A DNA stretch of 64,000 nucleotides from an uncultured Bdellovibrionales bacterium (GCA_964510575.1 CAZECN010000001.1:2131-66130), one strand, 5' to 3'. Shown: positions 4,810 through 23,025, counted from the stretch's first letter. A program made the numbers and translations. Notes: generated by a model from the letters alone, not told the origin.

Positions 4810-6387
4810 ATGGAAATCAAAGCTCAGGAAATTAGCAGAATTCTTAAAGAGCAGATCCAGGACTATGATGCCGGAGTTGAGCTTGCTGAAGTGGGAAGTG
4901 TGCTTTCGGTCGGTGATGGTATTGCCAGAATACATGGCCTTGAAGGCGTTGCCGCCGGTGAGCTGCTTGAGTTCCCGGGAGAGGTTATGGCAATTGCCCT
5001 TAACCTTGAAGAAGACAACGTCGGAGCCGTTTTAATGGGTGAGACTTCCTCGATTAAAGAAGGGGATATCGTAAAGCGAACCGGAAAAATTGCTGAGGTT
5101 CCAGTCGGTGAGGCCTTGGTCGGGCGTGTGGTCAACGCTCTTGGTCAGCCAATCGATGGTAAGGGTCCTATCGAAGCTAAAGAAACTCGAAGAATTGAGA
5201 TTAAGGCTCCTGGTATCATGGCTAGAAAGAGTGTTCATGAGCCTCTTCAAACTGGCCTTAAGGCTATCGACACGATGGTTCCAATTGGTCGTGGCCAGAG
5301 AGAGCTAATCATTGGAGACCGTCAAACTGGCAAGTCGGCGGTTGCCCTGGACACAATCATCAACCAAAAGGGTAAAGGCGTTACATGTATCTATGTAGCT
5401 ATCGGACAGAAGCGTTCTAGTGTCGCCCAAGTAGTGGACAAGCTCCGTGAAGAAGGAGCTCTGGATCATACAATTATTGTTTCAGCTTCAGCTTCTGAGC
5501 CAGCTCCTCTTTCCTTTATTGCTCCTTATTGTGGTTGCACAATGGGCGAATACTTCCGGGATAACGGTAAGCATGCTCTCATTGTTTACGATGATTTGTC
5601 TAAGCATGCTGTAGCTTACAGAGCTATTTCGCTGCTTCTAAGAAGACCTCCAGGACGTGAAGCTTATCCTGGAGATGTTTTCTACCTTCACTCCAGGTTG
5701 CTAGAGCGTGCTGCTAAAATGAGTGATGAGCAGGGAGCAGGATCGTTAACTGCCTTGCCTATCATTGAAACTCAGGCTGGAGATGTGTCTGCTTATATTC
5801 CAACTAACGTAATTTCGATTACTGATGGTCAGATATATTTGGAGTCGGACCTTTTCTATTCTGGTGTCCGCCCAGCTATTAACGTTGGACTTTCAGTTTC
5901 TAGGGTTGGTGGTTCTGCTCAGGTTAAAGCTATGAAAAAAGTAGCTGGAACATTGAGGCTAGACCTTGCCCAATATCGAGAAAAGCAGGCTTTTGCTCAG
6001 TTTGGTTCAGACCTTGATGAATCTACTCAAGCCCAGCTTTCAAGAGGTGAAAGGTTGGTTGAAGTTTTGAAGCAGGGACAATACGAGCCGATGGAAGTTG
6101 AGCTGCAAATTGTTTCAATTTTTGCTGCTAACAACGGATTCCTTGACGAGCTGGAAGTTGCAGATATTGGTGAATATGAAAAAGAATTACATCAATACGT
6201 TCAAGCCAACGCTAAGGAAGCTCTAGACGCGATCAGAGAAAAAGGTGCCACTAACGACGAACAGAACGCGGCGTTGAAGGAAGCAATTGGTAGTTTTACT
6301 AAAGACTTCTTGGCTACTAAAGGAGCAGCTCCGGCAGCTTCAGCAGCTAAGTCTTCTTCTGGGTCTGCAGCAGGAGCAGCGGCGTAA
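4810..6387 (+). CDS. atpA: FoF1 ATP synthase subunit alpha, with an unusual Ala/Ser-rich C-terminal tail of about 20 aa
   Basis: Walker A GDRQTGKS, conserved alpha blocks ([39 protein letters not shown]). ATG at 4810 follows the RBS GGAGAAGAG. The tail [24 protein letters not shown] is non-canonical. Confidence 0.95.
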
Positions 6388-6420
6388 CACTTTTTATCCT
6401 AGAAGGGAGAAGGCTTATAA

Positions 6421-7323
6421 ATGTCTAATCTAAAAGAAATCAGGCGCCGGATTGGCTCGGTGAGTAATACGAAACAGATTACTCGAGCTATGAAACTAGT
6501 TTCTGCAGCCAAGCTTAGAAGGGCTCAGGATGCAGCAACTGGTGGACGTGATTTTTCAAAGAGACTGGATCGAATTCTTGCTGAGCTAATGAGTAGTTTG
6601 CCTGAAGATTTTTCGCATCCTCTTTTGGAAAAAAGAGAGGTTATTAAGAAGCGAAGGCTAGTTGTTGTCTCTGGAGATAGGGGTCTTTGTGGGCCTTATA
6701 ATACCAACGTTCAAAAGGCAGTAATTAAGGAACTGGAAGCTTCAGAAGCTGAGAATGTAGAAGTAGACATGATTGCAATCGGTCGACGTGCTGTGTCTTC
6801 TGTTAATGCACGAGGATGGAACCTTGTGGAAGGCTATGAATCTCTCGCGACTGATCCAACGGAATGGCCAATTTCAGAGATTACAACAAGATGTGGAAAT
6901 GACTTTGAAAGCGAAGACTGCGACGAAGTTATTTTGCTTTATACTCATTTTCACTCGGCAGTTAGTCAGGAAGTGACCAGAGTTAGCTTGATACCATTTG
7001 AAGGTACCCCTGTTGGAACTGAAGCAGAGGATCAGTCCAAGGACGAAGAGCCTGCGTCGCTTAATAAGACAAAATGCGATCCGGATGCGGAGTCTATTGT
7101 CTCAGAGTTAATTAATGTTCTGATTTCTTCTAAGCTTACTCAAGCTATTTTAGAATCTAGAGCTAGTGAGCATGCAGCGCGAATGACTGCGATGGATGCT
7201 GCTACAAATAACGCTTCTGATTTAATAGGAAAGCTTAAGCTTACCTATAACAGAGCACGTCAAAGTGCGATTACAACAGAACTAATTGACATTGTGGGTG
7301 GTGCAGAAGCCACCAGTGGATAG
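6421..7323 (+). CDS. atpG: FoF1 ATP synthase subunit gamma
   Basis: N-terminus MSNLKEIRRRIGSVSNTKQITRAMKLVSAAKLRRAQ and C-terminus ITTELIDIVGGAEA are diagnostic for gamma. Confidence 0.9.
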   Translation: MSNLKEIRRRIGSVSNTKQITRAMKLVSAAKLRRAQDAATGGRDFSKRLDRILAELMSSLPEDFSHPLLEKREVIKKRRLVVVSGDRGLCGPYNTNVQKAVIKELEASEAENVEVDMIAIGRRAVSSVNARGWNLVEGYESLATDPTEWPISEITTRCGNDFESEDCDEVILLYTHFHSAVSQEVTRVSLIPFEGTPVGTEAEDQSKDEEPASLNKTKCDPDAESIVSELINVLISSKLTQAILESRASEHAARMTAMDAATNNASDLIGKLKLTYNRARQSAITTELIDIVGGAEATSG

Positions 7324-7337
7324 TTTTTATTATTTAA

Positions 7338-8819
<1,482 letters not shown>

Positions 8820-8826
8820 AATTTTT

Positions 8827-8858
8827 AGAGGTTCCTAAAAGGGGCCTCTAATTTTTTA
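8827..8858 (+). terminator. Hairpin plus T-run between atpD and atpC (candidate attenuator or partial terminator)
   Basis: AGAGGTTCC-TAAAA-GGGGCCTCT followed by AATTTTTT. Confidence 0.35.
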
Positions 8859-8895
8859 GTTTTAGAGTTATTACGAGACAGAGAGAAACCTCACC

Positions 8896-9315
8896 ATGAG
8901 TGCAGAATTCGAACTTGAAATTCTAACCCCAGGCAAAAAACTATTTGGAGAAAAAGTCTCCGAAGCGATAGTTCCTGCTTGGGATGGTGAGACTGGTATT
9001 CTTGCCAACCATGAAAACTTTGTTGGAAAGCTAGGAACTGGCGCTCTTAAAATTGTTCAAGAAGGTAAAGATTTTTGGTACATGGTTAGTGGCGGAGTTT
9101 ACGAAGTCCGTGACGGAGTTGTCTCTGTTTTAGCTCAAGTCGCTGAAGAAGCCGCTCAAGTTGATATCGAATCAGCTAAGGAAATAGACGAAAAACTTTC
9201 CTCTGAACTTCCTAAAACCAATCTTAACACAATTGCTGGTCAGAATATGACTATGGAATTGGAGAGGGCGAGGGCAAGGCTTGAAGTCTATAACCGAACC
9301 AAGTCCGTCCATTAA
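8896..9315 (+). CDS. atpC: FoF1 ATP synthase subunit epsilon
   Basis: 139 aa. N-terminal beta-sandwich pattern (LEILTPGKKLFGEKVSEAIVPAWDGETGILANHE) and position after atpD. Confidence 0.85.
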   Translation: MSAEFELEILTPGKKLFGEKVSEAIVPAWDGETGILANHENFVGKLGTGALKIVQEGKDFWYMVSGGVYEVRDGVVSVLAQVAEEAAQVDIESAKEIDEKLSSELPKTNLNTIAGQNMTMELERARARLEVYNRTKSVH

Positions 9316-9652: not shown

Positions 9653-11476
9653 ATGCTAAGACTAGTAGTCATACCAGCCTATTTGGCTATATTTCACTTA
9701 AGTCTTGAATGGCTTTTTTTGGCAACAAAACCCTCATTTCTATCGAGGCTTTCTTACCTTGATCAATTCTTGGTTTATTTTAATTCTCTTGGCTTACCAA
9801 TTATCACTATTGTTTTAGTTTTTACAGTTCTTGTAGCTATCACCAAGGTCTTGTTTAAAGGATTCCCAATAAATTGGAGCAAAATAGTCTGGTGTATTCC
9901 TGCTGCCGCCATATTGGCATCCTTATGGTTTCTTCTTGCTAATACGTTCACTTATAACTTGTTTGGTCAGAGCATATTAGTAGAGCAAGGACGAGGTAGA
10001 CTAGTATACCTGCTTGTATTTGCTTTACTCTACACTTATTCCTTTAGTGTTTTGAATAAATTGATTAGAGAAAGTTTTTGGAAATACTATGAAAGAAAGT
10101 TACTGCTAGTTTTAGTGACTTTAGCCTTAGTATCAGTATGTTCCTGTCTCATAAGTAATCGACATTTAGAGGCTTCTTTAGACGATCTGAAGTTTGACTT
10201 GGATGCTAAAAGCGAACTACCTGATATTATTTTACTCTCTTCAGACGCTTTACTTTCATCTCATATGTCGGTTTATGGTTACGAAAGAGAGACTACACCC
10301 TTTTTAGCCAGTGATGATGACAGTTGGCTGATTTATGAAAATGCATTTTCTAACGCCAATCGCTCAGCAGGCTCAGTGCTTGCAATGCTGACTGGCCGGT
10401 CTCCACTTCACACTAAGATAATAACTTATCCTGATATTCTTCGTGGGCAAGATTCCCTCAGCCATTTTGTTGGACTGATTAGAAGTAAAGGCTATCGAAC
10501 CTTAGACATAAGTATTCGTGATTACGCTGATGCAGTAGATCGAAACATGTGCCTTGGCTTTGATTACGCCACTGGACGTAAATTGGATCAAGGCCTTTAC
10601 TCTATTCTAAGGAACTATCCTTCTTTACTTTGCTCAGATGAATTCTTTTTTCTTTCAAGAGTCTTTAGAAGATTAAACGAGCATTTGAAGCACACGCTTT
10701 ATCTAAAAAAAGTATCACTGTCCTGGCATAGTGTGACTAAAAAAGTTGATTTTTTTGAACAAGATGTAAAAAAGATGGATCGTCTTATGGAGTTTATTGA
10801 AAGCTCTAAAAAGCCGATATTTGCCCATGTGCACCTGTTGGGAACTCATGGACCGATGTATAGCCCTAAAAGCGAAGCCTTTTCAGGTGGACGTGACCAA
10901 AGTGAAGATCGAGAAATAGATTTCTATGATGACGCGATCAGAGACTTTGACCACCATATTGAACGGCTTATTTCGAGTCTGAAAGAAATAGGTAAACTAG
11001 AACAAACCTTAATAGTTATTCACTCTGACCATGATCGACACTTTAGAGTGGGTGGTCGTATACCACTTATGTTTAGATTTCCTAGGAAAGAGTTTATTGG
11101 TCGAAAACATCTTAACGCTCAGCTGTTAGATATCGCCCCTACTATTTTAGACTATCTTGGATCGGCAGAGCTGGACTGGATAGATGGGGAGAGTCTTTTT
11201 AATACTGACCTTGAGCCTGATCGTTTGTTGGTTGGCCTATCAGATATTTACCCATTTAAGCATTACTATTCAGCAGAACCTCCCTTTTTTAATATTGACT
11301 CTATCGAGCTTATCAGATGCGATAGACAGCTCTCCTATTCGGTTGACTCGAAAGAGATTACTGAAAGGCGTATTAAGGGGCATACCAAGCCATGTGAGAG
11401 TAATCCTTGGGATCGACCCGGGCAAGCTATGCGAGACATAGAGCAGCAAATTTCTATTTTTCTAAGCTCTGACTAA
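9653..11476 (+). CDS. Membrane-anchored alkaline-phosphatase-superfamily enzyme (LtaS/EptA/OpgB-like sulfatase-fold phosphotransferase)
   Basis: About 180 aa of N-terminal TM helices, then a sulfatase-fold domain: SAGSVLAMLTGRSP (Ser/Thr-nucleophile variant of the C-x-P-x-R region) and HLLGTHGPMY. The architecture matches LtaS/EptA-type transferases. Confidence 0.7.
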   Translation: MLRLVVIPAYLAIFHLSLEWLFLATKPSFLSRLSYLDQFLVYFNSLGLPIITIVLVFTVLVAITKVLFKGFPINWSKIVWCIPAAAILASLWFLLANTFTYNLFGQSILVEQGRGRLVYLLVFALLYTYSFSVLNKLIRESFWKYYERKLLLVLVTLALVSVCSCLISNRHLEASLDDLKFDLDAKSELPDIILLSSDALLSSHMSVYGYERETTPFLASDDDSWLIYENAFSNANRSAGSVLAMLTGRSPLHTKIITYPDILRGQDSLSHFVGLIRSKGYRTLDISIRDYADAVDRNMCLGFDYATGRKLDQGLYSILRNYPSLLCSDEFFFLSRVFRRLNEHLKHTLYLKKVSLSWHSVTKKVDFFEQDVKKMDRLMEFIESSKKPIFAHVHLLGTHGPMYSPKSEAFSGGRDQSEDREIDFYDDAIRDFDHHIERLISSLKEIGKLEQTLIVIHSDHDRHFRVGGRIPLMFRFPRKEFIGRKHLNAQLLDIAPTILDYLGSAELDWIDGESLFNTDLEPDRLLVGLSDIYPFKHYYSAEPPFFNIDSIELIRCDRQLSYSVDSKEITERRIKGHTKPCESNPWDRPGQAMRDIEQQISIFLSSD

Positions 11477-11589
11477 AGTTCCTTTGGTCTGTTTGGCTTA
11501 ATGAATATACTGAAACCAGTTTAAATTCCGTGTCTGGCAGTGCTACGCACTTTATACCCCTTTACGACAGGTACAGAAAAAGCCAGAAT

Positions 11590-11925
11590 TTAAAGTAGAC
11601 GGGGTATATACTGCGCCTCATTTAAATTTCGGTTTAGCTAGACTAAGCATGGGCGCAGTATAAAGCCGAACTTTTAGTTCTGCCAAAAGACCATAGACTC
11701 AACCTCCAAGTATGCTTTTCAAGGCCTTTAGGCCTTGTCTGATTTTACTATCATTCAGAAAAACATGGGTAGGGTATTTGAACACTCTACTGGAAAAACG
11801 CTAGTCGCGTTTTACAGAGTTTTAGACGCAGTATCTGTCTTATGGCCATGCTAGCGCATGGCCGATATACTCAACCCTGCTAAACGCATAAAGGACCAAA
11901 TTTAAATCAGGTTGAGTATATAAGT
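11590..11925. repeat. Copy A of a roughly 330-bp noncoding repeat element, in an intergenic leader upstream of the 12024 gene
   Basis: Aligns block by block with the reverse complement of 19215-19535 at about 85% identity. Contains TATATACTGCGCC (11605-11617) / GGCGCAGTATAA (11652-11663), the perfect 20-nt palindrome GGCCATGCTAGCGCATGGCC (11844-11863), and TATACTCAACC (11866-11876) / GGTTGAGTATATA (11910-11922). Confidence 0.8.
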
Positions 11926-12023
11926 TTAAAGTCTTTTACCGTTGCCAAAACTTTGGCCCCATCTGATATTGACTATATCCAGTGGTTTAATTGAGCAGTG
12001 ATAAATAAGAGATAGGAACTTTT

Positions 12024-13322
12024 TTGAATTTAGCTTTAACTGATAGTTTTATCACGGATCTAGTTAATTCTAAGCGTTTGATTTATCGCTTTGTTCGAAT
12101 TTTACTGTTCTTACTATTTGCAGCACTGGCAATAGATAACTTTCGAGCTGGGATGGATTCCCTGCAAGAAAGACATGTGTTTGGAAAAGATTTTTTGCAA
12201 GAGTACTTGCTTGCTGTTGCTACTGTTAGAGGAGAGGATCCATATCAATCAGTTTCACAATTAGAGAAAAAGTTTCTTAATATTGCAGGAGAGACCAATG
12301 TTTTTCCACATGCGACCCCTCACCCTCCCTCTTTAATTCCTTATATTCTTTGGATGGAGAAGTTTGATTACTTCACCATGGCTAGTTTTTGGATGGTAGC
12401 AGAGGTTTTAATGACTTTTACTTCTGTCTTTTTTTGTTGGAGATATCTTTCTTTGACGAAGATTAGCCCATATTCACTTTTTTCTTTCCTCGCCTTTGTT
12501 GCAGGCTCTCAAGTCTTTAGAAGTGAATTAATATCTGGCCAACTAAATTCCGTCTTATTGCTTCTTGTTACAGGAATGCTGATCTTTGAAGATAGAAAGA
12601 AAGATCTTCTAGCTGGCACTTGTTTAGGCTTATGCCTTTCAATAAAATTTTTTGGAATTGCTTTTCTCGTATTCTACTTGCTTAAGCGTAAATTTAAATT
12701 AGTTATTGTTAGCGTATTAATTTTCTTATTTAGCTTGGGAGTGAGCTCTGTTCTTATTTCAGTGGAGACAACTTTTGATTATTTTATTTCAATTGCTCCT
12801 CAAGTCTCCAAGCTTTACCAAGGAGATAGTCATAATTTTTCTCCACTAGTTCTTCCTCAAAGAATATTTGAAGGAACCCATTCGCTAGTATCTACGAAGA
12901 ATAAGGCAATAGAACCGTTGGTTTTATTGCCTAGCCTAATTGAACCACTAAAATATCTTTTGGCATTATTTTTACTACTTGTCTCTTTATTACAAGCTGT
13001 CAGTGAAAAAGAGAGAAGGCTTCAAATTCCCAGCTTGATAGTTGGAAGTTTGGCGGTCTTCCCTAATCTTTGGGAGCATAGTCTCCTTGTTTTAATTCCA
13101 GTTTTATTGCCGACCTGGTCGAATAGCTCAAGAATCAAGCTAAGTGAAGTTTTAATACTAGTTCTTTTCTTTTTTGGTAACTTTGGTTTGTATTTTTATG
13201 ATAAAAGTTCACTTGGTTTTTGGGAAGGCTTGGTGACTTTAATTCCAACTGCTATTCTTATAGCTGTTATCCTGAATAGATCGGAAACCTTTTTCAGAAA
13301 TGAAAAAGATATTATCTCTTAG
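12024..13322 (+). CDS. Polytopic membrane protein, possibly a GT-C-fold glycosyltransferase (DUF2029/PMT-like)
   Basis: 432 aa with more than 10 predicted TM helices. TTG start. Sits in the island with LtaS-like enzymes. No diagnostic motif could be verified. Confidence 0.4.
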   Translation: MNLALTDSFITDLVNSKRLIYRFVRILLFLLFAALAIDNFRAGMDSLQERHVFGKDFLQEYLLAVATVRGEDPYQSVSQLEKKFLNIAGETNVFPHATPHPPSLIPYILWMEKFDYFTMASFWMVAEVLMTFTSVFFCWRYLSLTKISPYSLFSFLAFVAGSQVFRSELISGQLNSVLLLLVTGMLIFEDRKKDLLAGTCLGLCLSIKFFGIAFLVFYLLKRKFKLVIVSVLIFLFSLGVSSVLISVETTFDYFISIAPQVSKLYQGDSHNFSPLVLPQRIFEGTHSLVSTKNKAIEPLVLLPSLIEPLKYLLALFLLLVSLLQAVSEKERRLQIPSLIVGSLAVFPNLWEHSLLVLIPVLLPTWSNSSRIKLSEVLILVLFFFGNFGLYFYDKSSLGFWEGLVTLIPTAILIAVILNRSETFFRNEKDIIS

Positions 13323-13498
13323 CTTGCGAGATACTTTTCTATTTTTCGCTTTTTATTTCCTCGACTTAAACAGGCTCTTTTAGGTATTCTTTGTAGTAAG
13401 GCTTAAATGCTCTATGACTGAAGACTTGTCTCTAAGCTAATGCGGTCTTATGGCAAAAAATCACTATTCACCTCAATTTTTTAGTCTTTCTGATCGTT

Positions 13499-14725
13499 AT
13501 GAGTGAGCTTCATCTATTCAAACTAAATATCGAAAACAGAGAAACTAGTATTCAGGCAGTCTTATTGTGTTTATTCTACTTAGTCTTAAGTTTTTTCATC
13601 TTACGCGCGAAAACTGTTACCCAGGACACTTATATTCCCAAAAATCCCAGAGGACAGCTGGTTAAAACAGCTATTTCTTTTGCAGATGGCGAGGGTCTTT
13701 ATCAGAAAAGATTTCAAGACTTAGATAAAGCTTTATCAACTTATACCTCAGGCCCTGGTCAGTCTTATCTCCAGAGTGAACTACCATTTAATAGTTCTCC
13801 CTCAACTTGGGAGCCAAGTTTGTATCAAGATATATTTTCTGTTTCCACTAGTGGAAAACTAACTCCGAAACATCCTTGGTTTGTTTCATTAGTAGCCAGC
13901 CCTTTTTACTCAATTGCAGGTCTTCCAGGGGTTTGGTTTTTTAACCAGCTTTTGCTAGCAGGTTTTTTTGTTTCTGGCTTTTTACTTCTTCGTGAGCACG
14001 ATAAAAGTCTATTTCCTTTCATCTTTGCTTTTTCTTTCCCTTTACTTTTGTTTCAAACAGTTTTTTTTGCGAGGGCTGGACTTAGTCACGATTTGTTCGC
14101 AGCTTTTACAATTGTCTTAGCTTTTGCCGCAGTAAGAACATGCCCTTCTTTAGCGATGTTATTATTTGGAATTAGTGCTTATTGTAGAGTAACTAACTTA
14201 TCTTTCTTGCCTTTTTTGTTGATTTATAATCATTTCGGAGAAAATAGATCACTAGCCTCTTTGCACCAGAAATTAAGAAGTTTCACTGTATTGTTCATTG
14301 TAGTTTTACCATTATTTCTAACCAACCTAATCATTTGGGGTTCACCGATTTCAGGGTCTTATTCCAGACTTCCAGTTTATGAACATGGAGAGAGAGTTTT
14401 TGGTCACTCAAAGAATGACCACTTTTTTGATTTTAAAATCGCGATAGATCATGGGATGTCCAGGGTCACAGAGGGGAGGGATGGTCTTTTAAGAAATTTG
14501 CCGATTTTCATTTTTACCTTTCCTTTGGCTATGCTTCTTTTTTGGCTTGGTAAAAAGCGGGATTTTTATCTCCTTTTTGGGGCGGCAGTGTTTCAAAGCT
14601 TACTTTATTTGAGCTTCAACCACTGGGAGGGTGCTGTCGGATGGCGTTTTGTTTTAGTGGCTGGAATGTTTATGGCTGTGGTACTCGGTCGATGCATTGG
14701 GGATATTTGTTCTTCTAGAGTCTGA
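13499..14725 (+). CDS. Polytopic membrane protein of unknown function (possible GT-C-like)
   Basis: 408 aa, multiple TM helices, same strand as and downstream of 12024..13322. Confidence 0.4.
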   Translation: MSELHLFKLNIENRETSIQAVLLCLFYLVLSFFILRAKTVTQDTYIPKNPRGQLVKTAISFADGEGLYQKRFQDLDKALSTYTSGPGQSYLQSELPFNSSPSTWEPSLYQDIFSVSTSGKLTPKHPWFVSLVASPFYSIAGLPGVWFFNQLLLAGFFVSGFLLLREHDKSLFPFIFAFSFPLLLFQTVFFARAGLSHDLFAAFTIVLAFAAVRTCPSLAMLLFGISAYCRVTNLSFLPFLLIYNHFGENRSLASLHQKLRSFTVLFIVVLPLFLTNLIIWGSPISGSYSRLPVYEHGERVFGHSKNDHFFDFKIAIDHGMSRVTEGRDGLLRNLPIFIFTFPLAMLLFWLGKKRDFYLLFGAAVFQSLLYLSFNHWEGAVGWRFVLVAGMFMAVVLGRCIGDICSSRV

Positions 14726-14976
14726 AGCAGCACAAAATAATTGTAGGTGAAAAGTTGGTTTTCGTTTTGATTTCTTAGTATTACTTTAACATTACATTTT
14801 TATAAAATAACTCGTGAGCTTTTGGCTAAGGGTGCCGTCGGTATTACCTTCTTTGATTATTTTGTTATCAATTATAGTTAAAAACAGCCATTCCTCGTTG
14901 ATAAATCAATAGAAATAAAAATCGTACCTTATGTAAATGAATAGAGGGTAAAAAATCAATTCAGTAGATCGGAGAA

Positions 14977-17001
14977 CTATTCACTGAAGCTTGGTTTCTC
15001 CACCGCCACAATAGAATTGTGTTGAGGAGGAAAGTAGTTTTTCCTTTCAAAGACAGGCAAGTGTTTGTAGTATGTCAGTTGCTTATTTTCAAACAAAGTG
15101 AGTATTTCGGATAACTTCTCATATACTTCTGGGTTCTTTAGTTGATTTCTTTCGTGAGGATCTGAGGCTATATTGAATAAACGCTCACCTCGCCCTCTAT
15201 AATTCCTAGTTAACTTGAAAGGATAGTAAATTAGAGCTGACTCATCGGTGATTGATTGATTCGTGGTATAAATCGTCCTAGCCGGCTTTGCTTGCTGATC
15301 TGCTTCTCTTAAGAGACTTTGTCCTTGATGGTTTGGATGAGGCTCAAGACCTGCAAGATGTAATATTGTAGGAGGTAAGTCTATATGCCCGACTGGGAGA
15401 CTTACCGTGTGTCGAGGTTTAAAGTTGGCTGTGCTGCTAAATATTATGGGCACGTTAATTGCTTCTTCATAAAGGTAAGAAGCATGGTTTGCAATACCAT
15501 GCTCGTTGAACATGCTTCCATGATCTCCAGTAATCAAAAGAATTGTATTGGAAGGCAGTGTTCGAGCGAACTTTTCTATGATTTCATCTAGGTAGTTTAA
15601 ACAGTTCCAGTAACGGTTTTGCATTGTAGCTGTAAGTCTATCGGGATAGTAGACAAAGCCAGGAATTCTTGAAATTTCGGTTGGTTGAAAATTAGTTCTA
15701 CTAGTTCTATTTTGATTGAATGGAAAATGAGTTGAGTACAAATATGCCATAGCAAATACAGGCTTGTTTTCTGAACCGCTCTCTTTAACGAAGTCCTGGA
15801 TTAAGCTTAGCTTTTTTTCGTCAGAGCCTGCTAAGTCTTGTCTATGAGTTTCCTCAGCAGAATGCCCTTTATCCTGCCCCCTAGTTTTTTCTTCAGTTGA
15901 AATAGTAGGATCGAAATATAAATTTAATCTAGGAGAATCTGTAACTCGCCGAGTAACTTGCCACTGTTCAGCGAGAAGGGCTGAGTTATACCCAGATTCA
16001 CTAAGAAGGTCGTATATCCGGGTAAAAGGATAGTCTAGCGATAAGTGGGCATCCTTTTTTATATCTTTGAGTGGATATAGACCGGTGATCAGAGTGGTAA
16101 AACTATCCCCTGTATCAGCTGCTTGAGAATATCCTTTTGGGAAAAAAAGTCCGGTTTGAGAAAGTTTATTTAGGTAGGGCATTATATCTTGCCCTTCTAC
16201 CTTTTTACCTATGACGTCAGCACGTAAAGCCTCAACAACTAAAAATATAATATTAGGCCTGTTTTCAAAGGGGATTGATGGAGAGTAACTATATTCTTTG
16301 TTTGCGGGCACTAAATCTAGATTGACAGTTTGAATTTTTCGACTAGAGCTATCGTAAAGAAATTCTCCAAATAGGCTAAGGGAAGGGAGAGAGTAGTGAT
16401 TTACTAAAAGTCCGAGTTGGCCAATTTGGTTGGGAGACATTCTCGACTTATTATTTTGGATAAAAATTAAATTAGTTGCTAGAAGAGTAACCAAAAGAAA
16501 AATCTTTGGTTTTAGTGAGCTGTTCTTTTTCGAAAAAAAACATGAAAAGTAGACTAGGGTAACCGCTGTTAAGGGAATGGTCAGTGCGAATAATATTTCT
16601 CTCGCAGATAAAAGATCGAGTAGTTGGCTAATATCCAGCAGAAATAAAGATAAGAATAAGTCGCTTTGATGTAGAAAGCTTCCTGAAAAATACCACTTAG
16701 CCCAACTTGCCCAACTAGTTATAAGCCAAAGGCACATAATTATAGCGGGAAAAAGACCTACTATCTTGACTAAAAAGCCTTGGGAGTCCTGTAAAAGTTT
16801 TTTTATTATAGAAGCTAGAATCGATAGAAGGAGTAGTTCAATCACTAGAGCGGTGAATACATGATTATGGCACGCAAAGTAGGCTTTGGCTTCTATGGCC
16901 AACCAGCTTGTTTCTTCTAGTTGTTGCTTTCTAAACCAGATGGATGGCAAGAGTGTTGCTGAAAATAAAACGAGATACTTTAGGTAGGTCTTAGTTCTCA
17001 T
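14977..17001 (-). CDS. Membrane-anchored alkaline-phosphatase-superfamily enzyme (LtaS/EptA/OpgB-like)
   Basis: About 230 aa of N-terminal TM region, then a sulfatase-fold domain: NIIFLVVEALRAD, TGDSFTTLITGLYP (Thr in place of the FGly Cys), LLITGDHG. Confidence 0.7.
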   Translation of the reverse strand: MRTKTYLKYLVLFSATLLPSIWFRKQQLEETSWLAIEAKAYFACHNHVFTALVIELLLLSILASIIKKLLQDSQGFLVKIVGLFPAIIMCLWLITSWASWAKWYFSGSFLHQSDLFLSLFLLDISQLLDLLSAREILFALTIPLTAVTLVYFSCFFSKKNSSLKPKIFLLVTLLATNLIFIQNNKSRMSPNQIGQLGLLVNHYSLPSLSLFGEFLYDSSSRKIQTVNLDLVPANKEYSYSPSIPFENRPNIIFLVVEALRADVIGKKVEGQDIMPYLNKLSQTGLFFPKGYSQAADTGDSFTTLITGLYPLKDIKKDAHLSLDYPFTRIYDLLSESGYNSALLAEQWQVTRRVTDSPRLNLYFDPTISTEEKTRGQDKGHSAEETHRQDLAGSDEKKLSLIQDFVKESGSENKPVFAMAYLYSTHFPFNQNRTSRTNFQPTEISRIPGFVYYPDRLTATMQNRYWNCLNYLDEIIEKFARTLPSNTILLITGDHGSMFNEHGIANHASYLYEEAINVPIIFSSTANFKPRHTVSLPVGHIDLPPTILHLAGLEPHPNHQGQSLLREADQQAKPARTIYTTNQSITDESALIYYPFKLTRNYRGRGERLFNIASDPHERNQLKNPEVYEKLSEILTLFENKQLTYYKHLPVFERKNYFPPQHNSIVAVEKPSFSE

Positions 17002-17208
17002 AAAAGAGTTAAGGCAGATTAACTAATAATATATCAACCTAGCTTATATTTCGCTTTTCAGAGGTCTGGTTGAGGGTACAATCAATGGGTCAGCACTGCT
17101 ATTAGATAACTATACTTCGTCAAAAGATGCTGCAAGTCTAAAGGACTTGGCAAGAAAAGGGTTTTTTATTGGAGAAAAGTCACTATATCACTCGTAGCGA
17201 GTTTTTCT

Positions 17209-17781
17209 TTATCCTATTTTATAGTTTAGGCACATTTTTCTACTTTTAAATTTTTTTTGAAGAGAAACTTTAAAACCGTCTTTCTTCAACTCTAGTGTCT
17301 CCTGGTGGTCGGATTGACTATGCTCCCAAACCAAGTGGACAGGGTAGGCTAGTGATATTTCTTTCATAAAACCCTCTTCCCTAAAATTTAGTAAATACCA
17401 CTCCCACTCCAGCCGAGCTAACTCTGGCAGATAGAACAAAGACTTAGCCTCAGGTCTAACTTCAGTCAGCTCTTCTAGGTAGCTTTCAAATCGATCACCG
17501 TATTGATTTAGATCAGGCTCATCTGGGGGAAATTTATGAAAGTAGTCTGCCGCGATTTGTTTGAAGTAATCTTCTCCAACAACTTTGCAGCAGGCGGGAA
17601 AGGTATCTTTTAGCGCTCCATAAAGGTTGGAGCGAACAGTCTGGCGATAGATGCTGATTTGTTTTTGAGGAGAACGCTTTCCTCCACTGGGAAAGAGGTC
17701 TAGCACTCCTGTCTCCTCATTAAGCCTGGGAGAGACAATAGCTCCTTTAATAAGAGCTTGGATTTCAGCCAGTCGCTTCAT
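17209..17781 (-). CDS. DUF2063-family protein (BufC/MbnC-like partner of MNIO enzymes)
   Basis: The N-terminal domain matches the DUF2063 pattern (IQALIKGAI...YRQTVRSNLYGALKDTFPACCKVVGEDYFKQIAADYF). Overlaps the upstream DUF692 gene by 17 nt. Confidence 0.6.
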   Translation of the reverse strand: MKRLAEIQALIKGAIVSPRLNEETGVLDLFPSGGKRSPQKQISIYRQTVRSNLYGALKDTFPACCKVVGEDYFKQIAADYFHKFPPDEPDLNQYGDRFESYLEELTEVRPEAKSLFYLPELARLEWEWYLLNFREEGFMKEISLAYPVHLVWEHSQSDHQETLELKKDGFKVSLQKKFKSRKMCLNYKIG

Positions 17782-18631
17782 GAAGCAGAGGCTGAGGGTT
17801 TAGTATCTGGTCTGCCTTGGAAGCTTCACAAGCGAGCACTGAAAATTCAGGAATATCGTTGTCCCACTCAATTAAAGAAGGAGTATCCCCACAATGTTCA
17901 ATTGCTGCTCTGTATATCTCCCAAACATCGTCTGGAACTTCCCGACTGTGAGTGTCGAGCATATAACCATCTCGCTCTTCTCCACCAGCTAAGTGAATCT
18001 CGCCAACCCTTTCTGCTGGGATGGAGCGAATATAATCCATGGCTTTGTCTCCATGGTTATACTGGCTAACGTAGATATTGTTTACATCTAGCAAAATACC
18101 GCAGTCAGCTTTTTCAGCCACGGCAGAGATAAACTCAGCCTCAGGCATTTGAGACTCTTTAAAAGTTAAGTAACTTGAAACGTTTTCAATCAATAACTTA
18201 CGTCCGAGAAAATCCTGAATTTCAGAGATTCTACCAGCAACGTGATTGATCGTCTCTTCAGTGTAGGGCAGGGGAAGTAGGTCATGAAAGTTGACCCCAT
18301 GGGCAGATGTCCAGCAAAGGTGTTCTGAGACCCATGCGGGTTGGAAGCGGTCAGCTAGAGCCTTTATTTTACCAACATAGTCCCAGTTTATAGGGTCAGT
18401 TGAGCCAACTGACATACCAACGCTGTGCATGGTAATTGGATAATGAGAACGTATTTGTTCAAGGTCAGCTAGAGCTTCACCTTCCGGGCCAAAGTAATTA
18501 TCAGTGAGAACTTCAAACCAGTTTATGTCTGGCTTATGCTCTAAAACGAAATCTAAGTGTTGGGGGCGCAGACCGATACCGGCTCCCGATACCGGCCTGC
18601 TTGATAATTGGTAATGAGTATTATTCTTCAT
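17765..18631 (-). CDS. DUF692 / MNIO (multinuclear non-heme iron oxidative) enzyme, BufB/MbnB-like
   Basis: GAGIGLRPQH... WVSEHLCW... LLPLPYTEE... LLIENVSSY... GCGILLDVNNIYVS... EIHLAGG... LIEWDNDIP. These are the full set of conserved DUF692 blocks. Confidence 0.8.
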   Translation of the reverse strand: MKNNTHYQLSSRPVSGAGIGLRPQHLDFVLEHKPDINWFEVLTDNYFGPEGEALADLEQIRSHYPITMHSVGMSVGSTDPINWDYVGKIKALADRFQPAWVSEHLCWTSAHGVNFHDLLPLPYTEETINHVAGRISEIQDFLGRKLLIENVSSYLTFKESQMPEAEFISAVAEKADCGILLDVNNIYVSQYNHGDKAMDYIRSIPAERVGEIHLAGGEERDGYMLDTHSREVPDDVWEIYRAAIEHCGDTPSLIEWDNDIPEFSVLACEASKADQILNPQPLLHEATG

Positions 18632-18649
18632 TACTAAGGATTGACTAAT

Positions 18650-19075
18650 TTACTTAGTCATATCTCCCATTATTTTGTCAGACATTTTATCGACCATGTC
18701 AGTTGTTTTATCTGCCATTTTGCCGGTCATGGCTTTAGTTTTATCAGTCATGGCAGCAGCTTTGTCGGTCATTTTATCAGCCATGCCTGCAGCAGGTTTT
18801 TCCCCTACAACTTTAGCTCCAACGATCTTGTCGCAAGCGCCTTTAGGAAGATAAAGCCATTCAGTTGGGTCGGAGTCCTTGTCAGCTTTACCAGAGCAGC
18901 TGTGACGGCCATCAGTTGAGCCACAATCGTTTTTTCCAGCCTTAGAGACACCAGCGCATTTTTCCCATGCTGTTGGAGCACCTGGAACACCAGCTTGAGC
19001 TTCACCAGCAAGAGATAAAGTAAGGGCTCCAGCAGCTGCTAGTCCTAGAAGAGTTGAGTCTTTTTTAATAGTCAT
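18650..19075 (-). CDS. DUF2282-family (bufferin-like) RiPP precursor: Sec signal peptide, 4-Cys core, C-terminal Met-rich repeat tail
   Basis: Signal peptide MTIKKDSTLLGLAAAGALTLSLAGEAQA. The core WEKCAGVSKAGKNDCGSTDGRHSCSG...DPTEWLYLPKGACDKIVG matches the DUF2282 consensus. The tail GMADKMTDKAAAMTDKTKAMTGKMADKTTDMVDKMSDKIMGDMTK has 9 Met in 44 aa. The gene lies 19 bp upstream of the MNIO gene. Confidence 0.75.
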   Translation of the reverse strand: MTIKKDSTLLGLAAAGALTLSLAGEAQAGVPGAPTAWEKCAGVSKAGKNDCGSTDGRHSCSGKADKDSDPTEWLYLPKGACDKIVGAKVVGEKPAAGMADKMTDKAAAMTDKTKAMTGKMADKTTDMVDKMSDKIMGDMTK

Positions 19076-19214
19076 TAAATTTATGCTCCAAAAGTGGTGA
19101 GTGCTTGCTATTCAGAACACCCACTTCAAATTAGCCAATATATTACTGCTTTGGACGATTACTTCGTAAGGTTAGTTAACCCGTTATAAGTTAATTTTTC
19201 AAATTTTTAAGCTC

Positions 19215-19535
19215 TTCAGGTGATATACTCAACCTACTTTAAATTTCGTCTTTTAAGGATGTGACCGGGTTGAGTATATTCGCCATGCGTTAGCATGGCC
19301 AAGAGACCAATACTGCGCCTGAAGCTCTCTAAAACGCGACCAGCGTTTTTCTATTAGAGTCTCCAAATACCTCGATTCTCTGGATTAGTAATTAATTTAG
19401 ACAAGACCTAAAGGTCTTGAAAAGCATATTTAGAGGTTGAGTATATGGTTTTTTGGCCTCGCCTGCGCTCGGCTCTATACTGCGCCTATCCTCAATCTAT
19501 CAAAACCTAAATTTCAATGAGGCGCAGTATCTTTG
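19215..19535. repeat. Copy B (inverted) of the roughly 330-bp noncoding repeat element, upstream of the bufferin-like operon and downstream of pstB
   Basis: Reverse complement of copy A. Motifs: GATATACTCAACC 19222-19234, GGGTTGAGTATAT 19267-19279, palindrome 19282-19300, ATACTGCGCC 19309-19319, GGTTGAGTATATGG 19435-19448, TATACTGCGCC 19486-19496, GGCGCAGTATC 19521-19531. Confidence 0.8.
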
Positions 19536-19565
19536 TTGAGCCGTACGAATCAAGGGTTTATGGCC

Positions 19566-20423
19566 CTAGCCTCGAACGCCTTGTAGATAATCCTTAGTCA
19601 GTTTCTCAGCAGGGGCGGCAAATATTTCCGATGTTTTTCCGGTCTCAATAAGGCAGCCAGAGCCATTTCTAACCCAGCAGACTAGTAGGTTGTCAGAGAT
19701 TCTCTTGGCCTGCGCCAGGTTATGAGTGACCATTAAAACAGTATAATTGTCGCGAAGGCTCAAAATAAGTTGTTCAATTTTCTCAGATGAAACTGGGTCT
19801 AGGGCACTGCATGGTTCATCCATAAGTAGAAGCTCTGGCTTTAGGCTAAGAGTTCTAGCAATACAAAGGCGTTGTTGTTGTCCACCAGATAGATTGCAAG
19901 CTGATTGTTTCAATCTAGTTTTTACTTCATCCCACAAGCCAACATCTTTTAGCGATTGCTCCATTCTTTCATCCCTAATAGAGCTTTTGGAAACTCCATG
20001 CTCTTTAAGAGGAATATGAAAATTTTTTCTAATTGAAAAAGGAAAAGGAGCTGGTCTTTGGAATACCATGCCAATCTTTCGCCTTAGTTCTATCAAATCG
20101 CATGATGGAGATAGGATATCTGTATTGCCAAAACTAAGTTCACCCCTGAGTTTCGAGCCGGGGATTAAGTCTACCAAGCGATTTACTGAGTTTAAGAAAC
20201 TAGTTTTTCCGCAACCAGAGGGCCCAACCAATGCAGTAATCTTACAAGGTTCAATCTCAATGTTTACATTGTCGTAAGCTTTGAAGTCTCCATAGTGAAG
20301 GCTTAGGTTTTTAGCTTTTAAGGAAGCACAAACACTACCTGGTCTTTCAGAACAGTCAGAAACCTTAGTTAAAGCACTACCGTTATTTGAATAGTCTTTT
20401 TTTAGTTTTACTTGTCCCGACAC
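19566..20423 (-). CDS. pstB: Phosphate ABC transporter ATP-binding protein
   Basis: Walker A GPSGCGKTSFL, signature LSGGQQQRLCIARTL, directly downstream of pstA. It has an N-terminal extension of about 30 aa, so the true start may be internal. Confidence 0.9.
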   Translation of the reverse strand: MSGQVKLKKDYSNNGSALTKVSDCSERPGSVCASLKAKNLSLHYGDFKAYDNVNIEIEPCKITALVGPSGCGKTSFLNSVNRLVDLIPGSKLRGELSFGNTDILSPSCDLIELRRKIGMVFQRPAPFPFSIRKNFHIPLKEHGVSKSSIRDERMEQSLKDVGLWDEVKTRLKQSACNLSGGQQQRLCIARTLSLKPELLLMDEPCSALDPVSSEKIEQLILSLRDNYTVLMVTHNLAQAKRISDNLLVCWVRNGSGCLIETGKTSEIFAAPAEKLTKDYLQGVRG

Positions 20424-20431
20424 ATCAGCCT

Positions 20432-21262
20432 CTATGTTTTAGCACCCAGGACTTTTCTGGTTAGAAAAGTGGAAGTTAAGTTTATTACAATTAATGCGAC
20501 TACTAGAACCACAGCTGTGCGGTAGGCATTTTGATTACCACCAGGTACGTTCATAGCTAAATCGAAAATATGGACTGACATGCTTCTACCAGAGTCCATT
20601 ACAGACTCAGGCATTCTCAATAAGTAGCCGCTGGTAAAAAGTAAGGCGGCAGTTTCTGATAAGGCCCTTCCGATACCCAGGACCAGCCCAGCTGAAATAG
20701 TATTTGTTGAAAGAGGTAGAATTATTCTTCGTACTTGAGCTGTTCTTGAAAGTCCTAGTGAAGCACCAGTCAGTTTAAATTGACGATAGTTTTCGGATAT
20801 TCCTTCTTCAAAAATTCTAATTAAAAAAGGTAAAACCATGAAAGCTAGAGTTAAACCACCTGCCAGTATCGAAAAGCCAAATCCTAAGTATATAACAAAA
20901 AAAGAGTAACCAAAGAGTCCAAAAACAATAGAGGGAGTTGCAGCCAAGGTATCCAAAGCAGTCGAAATTAGGTTGTGCACTAAAGGATTTTTTTCAGAGA
21001 AAACAGCCAGAAATACAGCCGTAGCAATTGAAAGTGGGACTGATACCCCAAGGCAAATGGATAGGATTAGAAATGATGAATTAATTACTTCAAGAATTCC
21101 TCCAGCTCTACCTGCTTCACTTGAAACAGTTGTCAGAAACTCAAAGCTTAAAGCTCCTGATTGGTAAATTAAACTAGATAGTATTAGAAAAAATATGCCG
21201 CAGAAAAATAAAGCAGAGATAAAAGATAGGCCTTTCAGGATATATTCAGATTTAAAGCTCAT
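20432..21262 (-). CDS. pstA: Phosphate ABC transporter permease
   Basis: Polytopic permease with an EAA-like loop (GIGRALSETAALLFTSG). Operon position. Confidence 0.85.
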   Translation of the reverse strand: MSFKSEYILKGLSFISALFFCGIFFLILSSLIYQSGALSFEFLTTVSSEAGRAGGILEVINSSFLILSICLGVSVPLSIATAVFLAVFSEKNPLVHNLISTALDTLAATPSIVFGLFGYSFFVIYLGFGFSILAGGLTLAFMVLPFLIRIFEEGISENYRQFKLTGASLGLSRTAQVRRIILPLSTNTISAGLVLGIGRALSETAALLFTSGYLLRMPESVMDSGRSMSVHIFDLAMNVPGGNQNAYRTAVVLVVALIVINLTSTFLTRKVLGAKT

Positions 21263-22158
21263 CTGACTGGCTCCTCTTGAGTTTTTAAAAATAACCGGCC
21301 AGTGATGAAAACAGTTAAAACACTAAGGAGCAGTAAAAACCCTGATAAGAAAAGAGCACTTTGATGGCTGCCATAGGCGTAACCCATTTCCAGTGCAATA
21401 TTCCCTGTTAACGTTCTTACGGGGTCAAGCATACTTTCGGGCATTTGAACTACGTTCCCGCACACCATGACCACCACCATTGTTTCACCCATTGCTCGAG
21501 CAAGGGCTAGGACCAAACCAGTGGAGATTCCTCGAGATGCTAATGGAGTGGCAATTTCCAGAATAAATCTAGCCTTTCCAATTCCTAGGCCTTTCGATGT
21601 CACTCTAAGTTCTGAGTTTAGATTCTGATAAGCTGAAACGGTGCTTACAACGATGGTAGGTATGATCATTATTGCCAGAACAATCGCCCCAGCAAGAACG
21701 CTGAGACCTGGAGCCCTAATATTTAAAAGCAATGGAACTAAAACGACTAAGCCCCATAGACCAAGAACGACAGAAGGTAAGCCAGCTACAATTTCTGTAA
21801 CCCGATGAAGAAAAAGTCGAGAAACTCCTTTGCAAAAAAAGTGAATATAGACTGCAGTAAACCAGCCTATAGGAGCTGCAATAATAAGAGCTAGGATTGC
21901 CACAGTGACTGTAGCTATTATCATCTCTAACAATCCAAACTGTCCTTCAGCTAAATTTAATTCGGGAGCCCAAGTTGAATCTGAAAAAAACCTAGAGCCG
22001 CCAATTTGGCTTAAAGCCATGGAAGACTCTTTAAGTAGGAAATAAAAGATAAAGAAAATTACAAGGACTGAAAGGCTTGAAGCAAAGCCGAGTAGCGTTT
22101 TTGTGAAACTATCTTTTGAGCTGGCTGACAAAATACTTCCTGAACTTAGAATAGGCAC
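21259..22158 (-). CDS. pstC: Phosphate ABC transporter permease
   Basis: Polytopic permease with an EAA-like loop (ALARAMGETMVVVMVCG). Overlaps pstA by 4 nt. Confidence 0.85.
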   Translation of the reverse strand: MPILSSGSILSASSKDSFTKTLLGFASSLSVLVIFFIFYFLLKESSMALSQIGGSRFFSDSTWAPELNLAEGQFGLLEMIIATVTVAILALIIAAPIGWFTAVYIHFFCKGVSRLFLHRVTEIVAGLPSVVLGLWGLVVLVPLLLNIRAPGLSVLAGAIVLAIMIIPTIVVSTVSAYQNLNSELRVTSKGLGIGKARFILEIATPLASRGISTGLVLALARAMGETMVVVMVCGNVVQMPESMLDPVRTLTGNIALEMGYAYGSHQSALFLSGFLLLLSVLTVFITGRLFLKTQEEPVR

Positions 22159-22164
22159 CTGACT

Positions 22165-23025
22165 CTATTGTGGAGCAACAAAAGCCATTCCTTCGACTAA
22201 GTCTTTAACTTGGCTCGAAACCGCAAACTGAACAAATTCTTTTGAAGATGGTGAAAGCTCCTTTTTTGTTATTAAAACCAAAGGTCTAATGATTGGAAAG
22301 GAGCCGTTTTTTACATTTTCGGCAGTGGCTGCAACCCCAGATAGGGGCAAGGCTCTTATCTTAGAACTTCTTTTCTGTTCGAATTCAGTAGTTCCGATTG
22401 AAAGGTAAACCAGGGCACCTTGATTCCCCTCCAATAGTTTTACGCACTGTTGGTTTTCACCAGCTACTACGTCAGGCTTATAGGCAGCAGCCTTTATACC
22501 AAGGTAATCTTTTACTAGCTCTTTTTCAGAGCGACCTTTGGCTCGGTCAATAACTGTGATCTCAAGGTCTTGGCCACCAAGTTCTTTCCAGTTTGAAATT
22601 TTTCCGCTGTAGATATTGGCAAGCTGAGCTTGAGATAATTCTTTGACTGGGTTTTTACTGTTAACGACAAACGCTACACCATCCAAGGCCACTGTATGAC
22701 TTTTGACGATGGCCTCTTCTTCAGGAAATAAGGCTCTGGAGGACATTCCCACATCAGAGAGTCCTTTTATTACATCGGTGATTCCTTTCGAAGAGCCTCC
22801 GGTTTGGACATCCACTCGCAGAGAGGAGTCAGACTCTTCTAGCCTTTTAGCTATTTCTGCGGCCAAGGGTGCTAATGTGCTTGAGCCAGATACTGAGACC
22901 TTGGTGCTTTCAGCTTGAGCCGCAAAAGGTAACAGAAATAAAGAGCTTAAGATTAAAGAGAAAAATGAGATTGTTTTAACTTTCTTCATAAAAGCCTGCT
23001 TTCGGTATTGAAAATAAATTTGCAA
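22165..23025 (-). CDS. pstS: Phosphate-binding periplasmic protein
   Basis: Signal peptide then a PstS-family fold (SGSSTLAPLAAEIAKRL...GTTEFEQKRSSKIRALP). The likely start is MKKVKT at 22989. Confidence 0.85.
   Translation of the reverse strand: MQIYFQYRKQAFMKKVKTISFFSLILSSLFLLPFAAQAESTKVSVSGSSTLAPLAAEIAKRLEESDSSLRVDVQTGGSSKGITDVIKGLSDVGMSSRALFPEEEAIVKSHTVALDGVAFVVNSKNPVKELSQAQLANIYSGKISNWKELGGQDLEITVIDRAKGRSEKELVKDYLGIKAAAYKPDVVAGENQQCVKLLEGNQGALVYLSIGTTEFEQKRSSKIRALPLSGVAATAENVKNGSFPIIRPLVLITKKELSPSSKEFVQFAVSSQVKDLVEGMAFVAPQ

Follow-up and report, generated by a model that had tools for sequence, protein, structure and literature searches.

Why do two copies of the same non-coding sequence stand in inverted orientation at the two ends of a six-gene segment? 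The question is raised by a 64,000-nt stretch from an uncultured bacterium (GCA_964510575.1, CAZECN010000001.1:2131-66130; termed here the window, always at its full length), in which an element of about 310 nt lies in front of a GT87 gene and again, reversed, in front of a bufferin operon. An initial annotation had listed three explanations without ranking them, namely a shared regulatory leader or structured 5′ RNA, a mobile repeat resembling a MITE (miniature inverted-repeat transposable element), and the footprint of an inversion or duplication, and only the mobile repeat has stood. With a probability of roughly 80%, the two copies are independent and old insertions of a lineage-specific, non-autonomous mobile repeat, and they neither function as a pair nor delimit an island. 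The repeat is mobile or polymorphic, multi-copy in a sister genome, independent of orientation, constrained in its stems and prone to repeat-mediated internal deletion. It is a previously undescribed family of a known kind of element, similar to MITEs, to small mobile repeats (SMRs) and to REPINs, the hairpin-forming doublets of repetitive extragenic palindromic (REP) sequences.

Two Inverted Copies in the Window

The left copy occupies 11610–11921 on the plus strand (312 nt; nhmmer E 1e-97), with bounds transferred from the empty/filled site comparison given below, and the right copy occupies 19223–19528 on the minus strand (306 nt). An inverted-repeat search found three collinear blocks of 62, 69 and 149 nt with 82–86% complementarity (11608–11669 with 19469–19530, 85%; 11682–11750 with 19389–19457, 86%; 11773–11921 with 19223–19371, 82%), and blastn aligned the copies at 78.1% over 315 columns (E 3e-69), which places the pair essentially where it had first been reported. 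The sub-blocks named in that report are all present (TATACTGCGCC/GGCGCAGTATA, a 60-nt block, the palindrome GGCCATGCTAGCGCATGGCC and TATACTCAACC/GGTTGAGTATA); its figure of about 85% identity is correct for the ungapped blocks but drops to 76.5% end to end in an alignment of four full-length copies. The longest exact run common to both copies is 15 nt, no ORF (open reading frame) of at least 50 aa is found within either, and blastn over the window detected no further full copy.

The left copy is placed between a sulfatase-family gene (9653–11476) and the start of the GT87 gene (12024, plus strand), its left end (LE) beginning with ACTGCGCC and its right end (RE) finishing with GGTTGAGTATAT. 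The right copy is placed between pstB (20423–19566) and the start of bufA (19075, minus strand), where the LE adjoins the pstB stop codon and 147 nt separate the RE from the bufA start downstream. As had been noticed earlier, the same end (RE) therefore faces the first gene of an operon in both cases. The absence of a transposase was likewise judged correctly, since Pfam searches of the flanking and island genes revealed neither a transposase nor an integrase domain around the copies.

Empty and Filled Sites in Relatives

Relatives were gathered through protein homology of MNIO, AtpD, GlmS and TrpC. The sister genome (assembly ERZ6864144, metagenome-assembled genome (MAG) CALIEE01) has ~87% nucleotide identity to the window, and BBAY59 (contig L008) is a more distant relative. 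The best named GlmS matches are Bdellovibrionota/Oligoflexia MAGs with 64–66% identity, taken as best hits without a phylogeny, and the uncultured host lineage is apparently related to Bdellovibrionota.

The spacer between pstB and bufA measures 146 nt in the sister genome (contig L004, which holds this junction) and 124 nt in BBAY59, both without the ~345 nt present in the window. The bufA-proximal sequence downstream of the insertion point, TAACAGGTTAACTAAC...GTAGTAATCGTCCAA, is common to all three. The insertion point itself is not base-exact, since the element is bordered by 35 nt on its left and ~18 nt on its right that likewise fail to align with either relative. BBAY59 also holds no element upstream of its GT87 gene, which is 46% identical and collinear, and keeps the gene order atpDC - GT87 ... 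bufCBA - pstBACS. By parsimony, therefore, both window copies entered in this lineage, at points upstream of promoter regions that were already present.

The reverse situation was found at a third locus. A contig of the sister assembly (L011, ERZ6864144:c_000002405562, same assembly as L004) is orthologous to window positions 44.0–50.0 kb at 83% identity and carries a 135-nt form of the element at 3913–4047, and thus a genome that is empty between pstB and bufA bears the element elsewhere. Its insertion point corresponds to an empty site in the window at 48947–48950 (plus strand; AATCTAG|AAGGTCAAATCATG), where the window and a third genome (L036) share the seamless junction GAGAATCTAG|AAGGTCAAATCATG (AATCTAG|AAGGTC). 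The filled junction reads GAAAATCTAG, then the element from ACTGCGCC to GGTTGAGTATAT, then AAGGTCAAATCATG, with an ambiguity of at most 1 nt. This comparison sets the left boundary at ACTGCGCC, so that the TATAT to the left of other copies belongs to the flank, and sets the right boundary so as to take in the terminal GTATAT. Differences in presence and absence accordingly run both ways, with the window filled at pstB-bufA and empty at 48947–48950.

Dispersal in the Sister Genome

An exact-pattern scan of 185,579 species genomes with the pattern of hairpin B (see below) returned four contigs, all from the single MAG CALIEE01, plus two unrelated hairpins from Bacteroidota (L013 and L015), which are long and perfect but have no common loop and were set aside as chance. 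The four contigs contain two full copies (L010, 7022–7328; L014, 1575–1270), the 135-nt deletion derivative described above and an RE half (L012, 2209–2298). One copy lies between MFS and histidine kinase genes, one between EamA and DUF4886 genes, one upstream of trpC, with a gene encoding a small secreted protein as its other neighbour, and one next to a Wzy_C ligase gene. Every copy is intergenic and has a gene start no more than ~150 nt away, but the orientation is not fixed: in L010 and L014, where the flanking genes are co-directional, the LE faces the downstream start codon, and the RE does so in the other four copies. The unrelated contexts, the deletion derivatives and the polymorphism in both directions at orthologous sites bear out the MITE-like option.

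The four full copies (left and right of the window, L010 and L014), aligned together, are 74–82% identical in pairs, and the window pair is no closer than pairs taken across genomes, which leaves no room for a recent duplication or for gene conversion. The 135-nt form is what remains of the full element once the stretch between two internal direct repeats, A'1 and A'2, is taken out, and by analogy with palindrome-associated transposable elements (PATEs) it is to be read as a repeat-mediated core deletion. Short-read (Logan) contigs of both organisms end within the element (L003 at 2–30, L035 at 9–33), as is expected of a multi-copy repeat in assembly.

Anatomy of the Element and Constraint on its Stems

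The element is non-coding and symmetric, consisting of two end modules of ~86 nt and a centre of ~140 nt. Each end module joins a 24–25-nt terminal inverted repeat with the pattern ACTxxxCC-N3-TTTAAATTT to a complementary internal arm and a palindrome-like block rich in GGCC. Over their outermost 25 nt the two ends match as inverted repeats at 84% (TATATACTGCGCCTCATTTAAATTT and AAATTTAAATCAGGTTGAGTATATA), and the symmetry continues over ~86 nt, as positions 2–102 of the family profile match the reverse strand of the opposite end (11921–11824, E 5e-4). Six occurrences of the 24-nt end motif ATATACTNNNCCNNNTTTAAATTT were counted in the window, where 0.19 would be expected, and all of them fall within 11505–19532.

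At each end the repeat tip pairs with the internal arm into a ~57-nt terminal hairpin, and these fold as DNA at -9 to -15 kcal/mol in all copies (z -2.5 to -6). In the left copy, tip A (ACTGCGCC) starts at 11610 and hairpin A spans 11607–11661 (plus strand; -14.2 kcal/mol, z -5.1), with the outer arm ATACTGCGCC, a 34-nt loop beginning TCATTTAAATTT, and the inner arm GGCGCAGTAT, which is the A'1 arm at 11651 and is followed by the GGCC-rich block. The central segment (11693–11834, plus strand) is bounded by B1 (ATAGACTCAACC, 11693), a direct repeat of B2, and by A'2 (GACGCAGTAT, 11825), a direct repeat of A'1; it contains the hairpins H1 (CAAGGCCTTTAGGCCTTG, CAAGGCC-TTTA-GGCCTTG, 11720–11737) and H2 (AAAACGC-TAGT-GCGTTTT, ~11797–11815). 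Beyond it lie palindrome P (GGCCATGCTAGCGCATGGCC, 11843–11862, plus strand) and hairpin B (11865–11920, plus strand; -10.0 kcal/mol, z -4.0), made of the inner arm B2 (ATATACTCAACC, 11865), a 33-nt loop ending AAATTTAAATCA, and the outer arm B' (GGTTGAGTATAT, 11909–11921), which forms the RE tip.

The constraint is seen when the four full copies are compared. The arms of hairpin A are invariant at 11/11 and 10/11 columns with 23/33 in the loop, those of hairpin B at 11/12 with 12/33 in the loop, H2 at 18/19 and P at 18/20, against 11/57 in the spacers; arms, H2 and P are thus 90–100% invariant and loops and spacers 20–70%. The arms of hairpin B are conserved in the partial copies L011 and L012 as well. 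A single compensatory change was found among 69 pairs (H1 of the right copy, G-C to A-T). Hairpins nevertheless come in three types (A with GCGCC, B with CAACC, C with CCCG) whose stems differ while each remains internally complementary, which argues that pairing itself matters.

Such constraint could also be expected of a multi-copy small-RNA gene or a transcribed structured repeat, kept for its transcript or for a hairpin in messenger RNA in the manner of REP sequences, bacterial interspersed mosaic elements (BIMEs) or Correia elements. Here the stems are kept across ~25% divergence while the loops drift, every copy is intergenic with a gene start within ~150 nt, and most copies hold outward promoter-like sites at both ends. 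On the RE side, the 5′ half of P provides a -35-like TGGCCA, separated by 17 nt from the TATACT in arm B2, an arrangement (TGGCCA-N17-TATACT) that matches a sigma-70-like consensus in 4/6 copies; on the LE side, TTGGCC/A-N17-18-TATACT matches on the opposite strand in 3/4 copies. H1 of the left copy is terminator-like. However, the large hairpins are not followed by a U-tract, only one pair is compensatory, and recognition by a transposase would explain the conservation of stems equally well. We regard a function of this kind as unlikely to be what maintains the family, and it would in any case supplement the mobile repeat rather than replace it. Under the mobile-repeat reading itself, the copies are possibly passengers that add hairpins to the 3′ ends of the pstB and sulfatase gene messages, and, as Correia elements suggest (PMC3184786), their outward promoter-like sites might drive transcription of GT87 and bufA.

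A Shared Leader or a Mobile Segment?

The position of the copies invites the idea of a dedicated cis-regulatory leader, a structured 5′ RNA that would co-regulate the GT87 and bufferin operons through alternative pairings (A:A'1 or A:A'2, B1:B' or B2:B'), and the initial annotation had spoken of near-identical 5′ leaders on two convergent units. In both window copies the same end is turned to the first operon gene, the copies fold strongly (z -4.9 and -6.8), each arm sequence is present three times so that mutually exclusive pairings are possible, and the compensatory change in H1 is of the kind such a leader would show. Yet the orthologous regions upstream of bufA and GT87 are without the element in relatives (L004, L008, L027), the bufA-proximal sequence being retained, the other copies have MFS, EamA, trpC and Wzy genes as neighbours and are reversed in two cases (L010 and L014), and the stems are invariant rather than covarying, with 1/69 pairs compensatory. 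Rfam gave no credible match at gathering thresholds on the whole window or at E ≤ 10 on both copies, where the best scores belong to nrdJ (14.6 bits) and a eukaryotic long non-coding RNA, neither of them credible. The leader is largely refuted by the empty orthologous sites, and we consider it highly improbable.

Slightly less probable still is a composite transposon or invertible segment, in which the inverted copies would mobilise or flip the 7.3 kb between them. The geometry is suggestive, as six genes are bracketed, the region from GT87 to bufC varies between relatives, GC content falls to 35–40% over 12–17 kb against 42% overall, and pairs of MITEs can mobilise the DNA between them, as in integron mobilisation units (IMUs; PMC3184786). 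Gene order speaks otherwise: bufABC beside pstB and GT87 downstream of atpDC are also found in relatives without elements, so the genes at the ends of the bracketed segment are in their ancestral position and orientation, and synteny shows that the segment has not been inverted. The outer flanks (GGGGTATAT and CAAAGAT) form no duplication, and the limits of the variable part differ from the repeat boundaries. Efficient RecA recombination usually takes ~23–27 bp, and with 76.5% identity and no exact run beyond 15 nt the window pair would be a poor substrate for inversion. The footprint of an inversion or duplication falls on the same grounds, since a relative without elements has its genes in the same order (atpDC..GT87 and bufCBA-pstBACS) and the window copies resemble each other no more closely than they resemble those of another genome.

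Multi-site ends of the Tn7 or Mu type delimiting a 7.9-kb transposon were rejected on synteny. An attC site has the consensus R''(RYYYAAC)...R'(GTTRRRY), L boxes that pair, and a cassette/IntI context; hairpin B fits the R''/R' pair (ACTCAAC/GTTGAGT) and hairpin A does not (ACTGCGC/GCGCAGT), and with no L-box pairing and no integrase among the neighbours attC was rejected as well.

Junctions and the Chemistry of Insertion

The 5′ flanks are TATAT (left copy and L010), CCTAT (L014), AAGAT (right copy), TCTAG (L011) and AATAT (a 101-nt mini-element described below), so that the last triplet fits (T/G)A(T/G), being TAT in four copies, GAT in one and TAG in one. The 3′ end is constantly GTATAT, L014 alone having GTATAA. 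TAT/TA is found on both sides in 3/6 copies, but the right-hand TAT is constant. At the L011 site, the left flank TAG equals that of the empty site and the right end is TAT, which, as a single informative site, would require no change if insertion makes no duplication, one change for a 3-bp duplication and two for a TA duplication. Successive elements begin directly after the TATAT of the preceding one, as in the passage from mini-element to left copy, and in the L010 array, where a C-type unit in reverse comes after the full copy and a D-type start after that unit.

The simplest reading of these junctions is an insertion 3′ of (T)AT without duplication, comparable to that of IS200/IS605-type elements, PATEs and SMRs (PMC3119063). 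The element would insert into intergenic DNA directly 3′ of (T)AT or TATAT, often at the TATAT end of a resident copy, which would yield head-to-tail or tail-to-tail arrays, and it would be mobilised in trans by a transposase encoded elsewhere. As for the enzyme, we lean by a narrow and weak preference toward a duplication-free or single-strand, hairpin-recognising mechanism (HUH/Y1, IS200/IS605- or RAYT-like) over a DDE enzyme with a 2–3-bp TA(T) duplication, the preference being held near even because there is one informative site and because the clear terminal inverted repeats are no trait of IS200/IS605. More speculatively, the family may stand for a bacterial class of hairpin-ended, inverted-repeat, duplication-free mobile repeats, a counterpart of the haloarchaeal SMRs, whose enzyme, HUH/Y1-like or other, would cut at TAT|ACT and after GTATAT and home to the family's own TATAT ends; we hold this as a doubtful but possible extension.

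Comparison with Known Mobile Repeats

The element agrees with the description of MITEs save for a demonstrable target duplication and a parent insertion sequence (PMC3184786; PMC3119063). Like the bacterial MITEs (Correia/CREE of Neisseria, RUP, ERIC-type; PMC3184786), it is a small intergenic element without coding capacity that ends in terminal inverted repeats, is multi-copy and present or absent between close genomes, lies often 5′ of genes, and has promoter-like end sequences and stable stem-loops. Unlike them, it has no convincing target duplication at its one clean junction, each of its ends makes a hairpin of its own whereas a MITE folds back as a whole, and no related transposase-bearing insertion sequence was found among neighbour genes or in a plasmid collection.

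It best fits the SMR class, with a mosaic behaviour like that of REPINs and BIMEs. The SMR category is descriptive, and the mobilisation of its member SMR-A of Haloquadratum walsbyi is unexplained (PMC3119063). SMR-A similarly has terminal inverted repeats and no known parent, makes no target duplication, as may also hold here, is too short for a transposase, and tends to insert in or beside the terminal palindromes of other mobile repeats (PMC3119063); it differs in being archaeal, ~110 bp long and unrelated in sequence, and the present element prefers the TATAT ends of its own family. With PATEs and the ends of IS200/IS605 elements (PMC3119063; PMC10055086) it shares near-terminal palindromes (hairpins A and B in every full copy) and, to judge by its one seamless empty site, perhaps also a duplication-free insertion just 3′ of a short conserved oligonucleotide, and with PATEs also repeat-mediated core deletions to 'terminal-only' derivatives (L011, possibly the mini-element). 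PATEs, however, are defined as being without terminal inverted repeats, and the 24–25-nt repeats here exclude the element from them; in contrast to IS200/IS605, the putative cleavage points are found at the hairpin foot and not 10–20 nt away, no TnpA or TnpB is encoded among the flanking genes, and Rfam gave no match to IS605-associated RNAs.

REPINs and REP-BIME sequences with their RAYT proteins (PMC3116915; PMC3337134; PMC2817692) have an analogous architecture of two inverted palindromic units with a spacer, and are alike in their mosaic arrays in alternating orientation, vertical inheritance in a narrow lineage and conserved stems. The 101-nt mini-element and the 135-nt form can be compared to such paired units, although they are far larger than REPs: units here measure 57–86 nt with 33–34-nt loops, within a full element of ~310 nt, and there is neither a GTAG-type conserved head nor a RAYT among neighbour genes. 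REPIN systems comprise tens to hundreds of copies and a single-copy RAYT gene that has the repeats at its flanks. The IMU and other integron-mobilising MITE pairs (PMC3184786) offer the same picture of two ~300-bp non-coding inverted-repeat copies bracketing a multi-gene segment, but here synteny shows that the bracketed genes have not travelled together, no duplication flanks them, and the two copies are old and have diverged.

Weighing the Mobile-Repeat Reading

A number of observations count against an insertion history of this kind. The family has been seen in two closely related genomes only: nhmmer, run with the family profile over the window and the contigs of relatives, found no copy in ~100 kb from more distant relatives, a distant-mode blastn search of a plasmid collection had no match, and a JGI metagenome scan with the hairpin-A pattern gave no family member. 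Its copy count comes from fragments (three to four pieces within 8 kb of the window, four in a fragmented MAG), and no transposase or autonomous relative is encoded among the neighbours of any copy. The L011 site is the sole clean junction pair, and the direction of change there is not polarised by an outgroup; the TAT...TAT flanks of three copies fit a 3-bp or TA duplication by a DDE enzyme equally well, and true terminal inverted repeats are atypical of IS200/IS605-type elements. Promoter and terminator roles, finally, are read from consensus matches only.

Several candidates were discarded in the course of these searches. The JGI scan returned 11 hits, all unrelated coding sequence on contigs of 52–64% GC. 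Viral scans gave two matches, both rejected: one was due to chance, and the other (L033), with arms identical at 16/16 and 12/12 positions, lies inside a helicase-like ORF. As possible Y1 transposases, a 168-aa ORF in L010 turned out to be a histidine-kinase C-terminus and a 146-aa ORF in L012 to be without domains, and a 408-aa protein of the island, also considered as a transposase, is a polytopic membrane protein instead.

The finding is sound as an observation and ordinary in its significance, and its chief value lies in annotation of the locus, where the tempting but wrong inference of a shared leader or a mobile island for the glycan and bufferin genes can be dropped. Repeats of this sort break short-read assemblies and can donate promoters to their neighbours, here GT87 and bufA. 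The architecture is unusual in that terminal inverted repeats are combined with separate hairpins at the two ends, with a seamless empty site and with arrays that arise by self-targeting, and if the duplication-free hairpin mechanism is true and its enzyme is found, the family would become a tractable bacterial example of a repeat class with unexplained mobilisation.

Further Pieces of the Family in the Window

The mini-element (11509–11609, plus strand, 101 nt) consists of a D-type LE (ACTGAAACCAGTTTAAATTC) and a C-type RE (GAATTTAAAGTAGACGGGGTATAT) and stands head-to-tail with the left copy, which its own 3′ TATAT (11605–11609) directly abuts. It matches the end motif at 11505–11528 (plus) and 11586–11609 (minus); its D and C tips differ from the tips of full copies but keep the TTTAAATT motif, and by nhmmer alone it is a weak match (E 0.56). 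A homologue stands reversed beside the L010 copy.

A degenerate third copy, an RE half with A'2, P, the B2 arm, the loop and the B' arm, lies at 17032–17128 (minus strand) in the spacer between the start of a sulfatase gene (sulfatase-674) and the bufC stop (nhmmer E 1.8e-4; local score 39 versus 18 ± 2.4 for shuffles). A further motif, (C)T(G/A)AAGAGCTTAAA, was observed just outside the RE at window 19222–19204 (minus strand) and at L012 2300–2315, and also, reversed, to the left of the L010 copy (6975–7000); either a further family module or a favoured target may be represented by it.

Genes at the Locus

By Pfam, the locus encodes two sulfatase/LtaS-like proteins, GT87, the 408-aa polytopic membrane protein, BufA1/DUF2282, MNIO, DUF2063 and pstSCAB. 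In three genomes (window 17209–23025, L004 and L008) the bufferin operon (bufA, MNIO, DUF2063) is the immediate downstream neighbour of pstSCAB and is oriented alike; in a fourth (L006) it lies beside sodB and DsbD instead. The conserved non-coding block upstream of bufA (TAACAGGTTAACTAAC...GTAGTAATCGTCCAA; window 19100–19205, minus strand; L004 4470–4597; L008 9470–9554) has the palindrome GTTAAC and is likely the native promoter or operator of the operon. BufA1 itself (18650–19075, minus strand, 141 aa) has a Met-rich C-terminal tail after its Cys-containing DUF2282 core; the tail consists of MxDK-type repeats (GMADKMTDKAAAMTDKTKAMTGKMADKTTDMVDKMSDKIMGDMTK), which are the source of two 33-nt direct repeats (D3 and D6) at 18674–18793, and it resembles a Met-rich extension of the Cu(I) type carried by a bufferin precursor.

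The stretch from atpC to bufC is a variable envelope-glycan region (window 9653–17001; L027 11873–21207; L008 11554–18854). In the window it holds the two sulfatase/LtaS-like genes and the gene for the 408-aa GT-C-like membrane protein, and in BBAY59 a DegT gene, two methyltransferase genes, two GT2 genes and a DAO oxidoreductase gene. Next to it, the ATP synthase operon carries two b-type genes (b and b') before delta-alpha-gamma-beta-epsilon (window 3078–9315; L027 5729–11873), a pair that may aid the taxonomic placement of the lineage.

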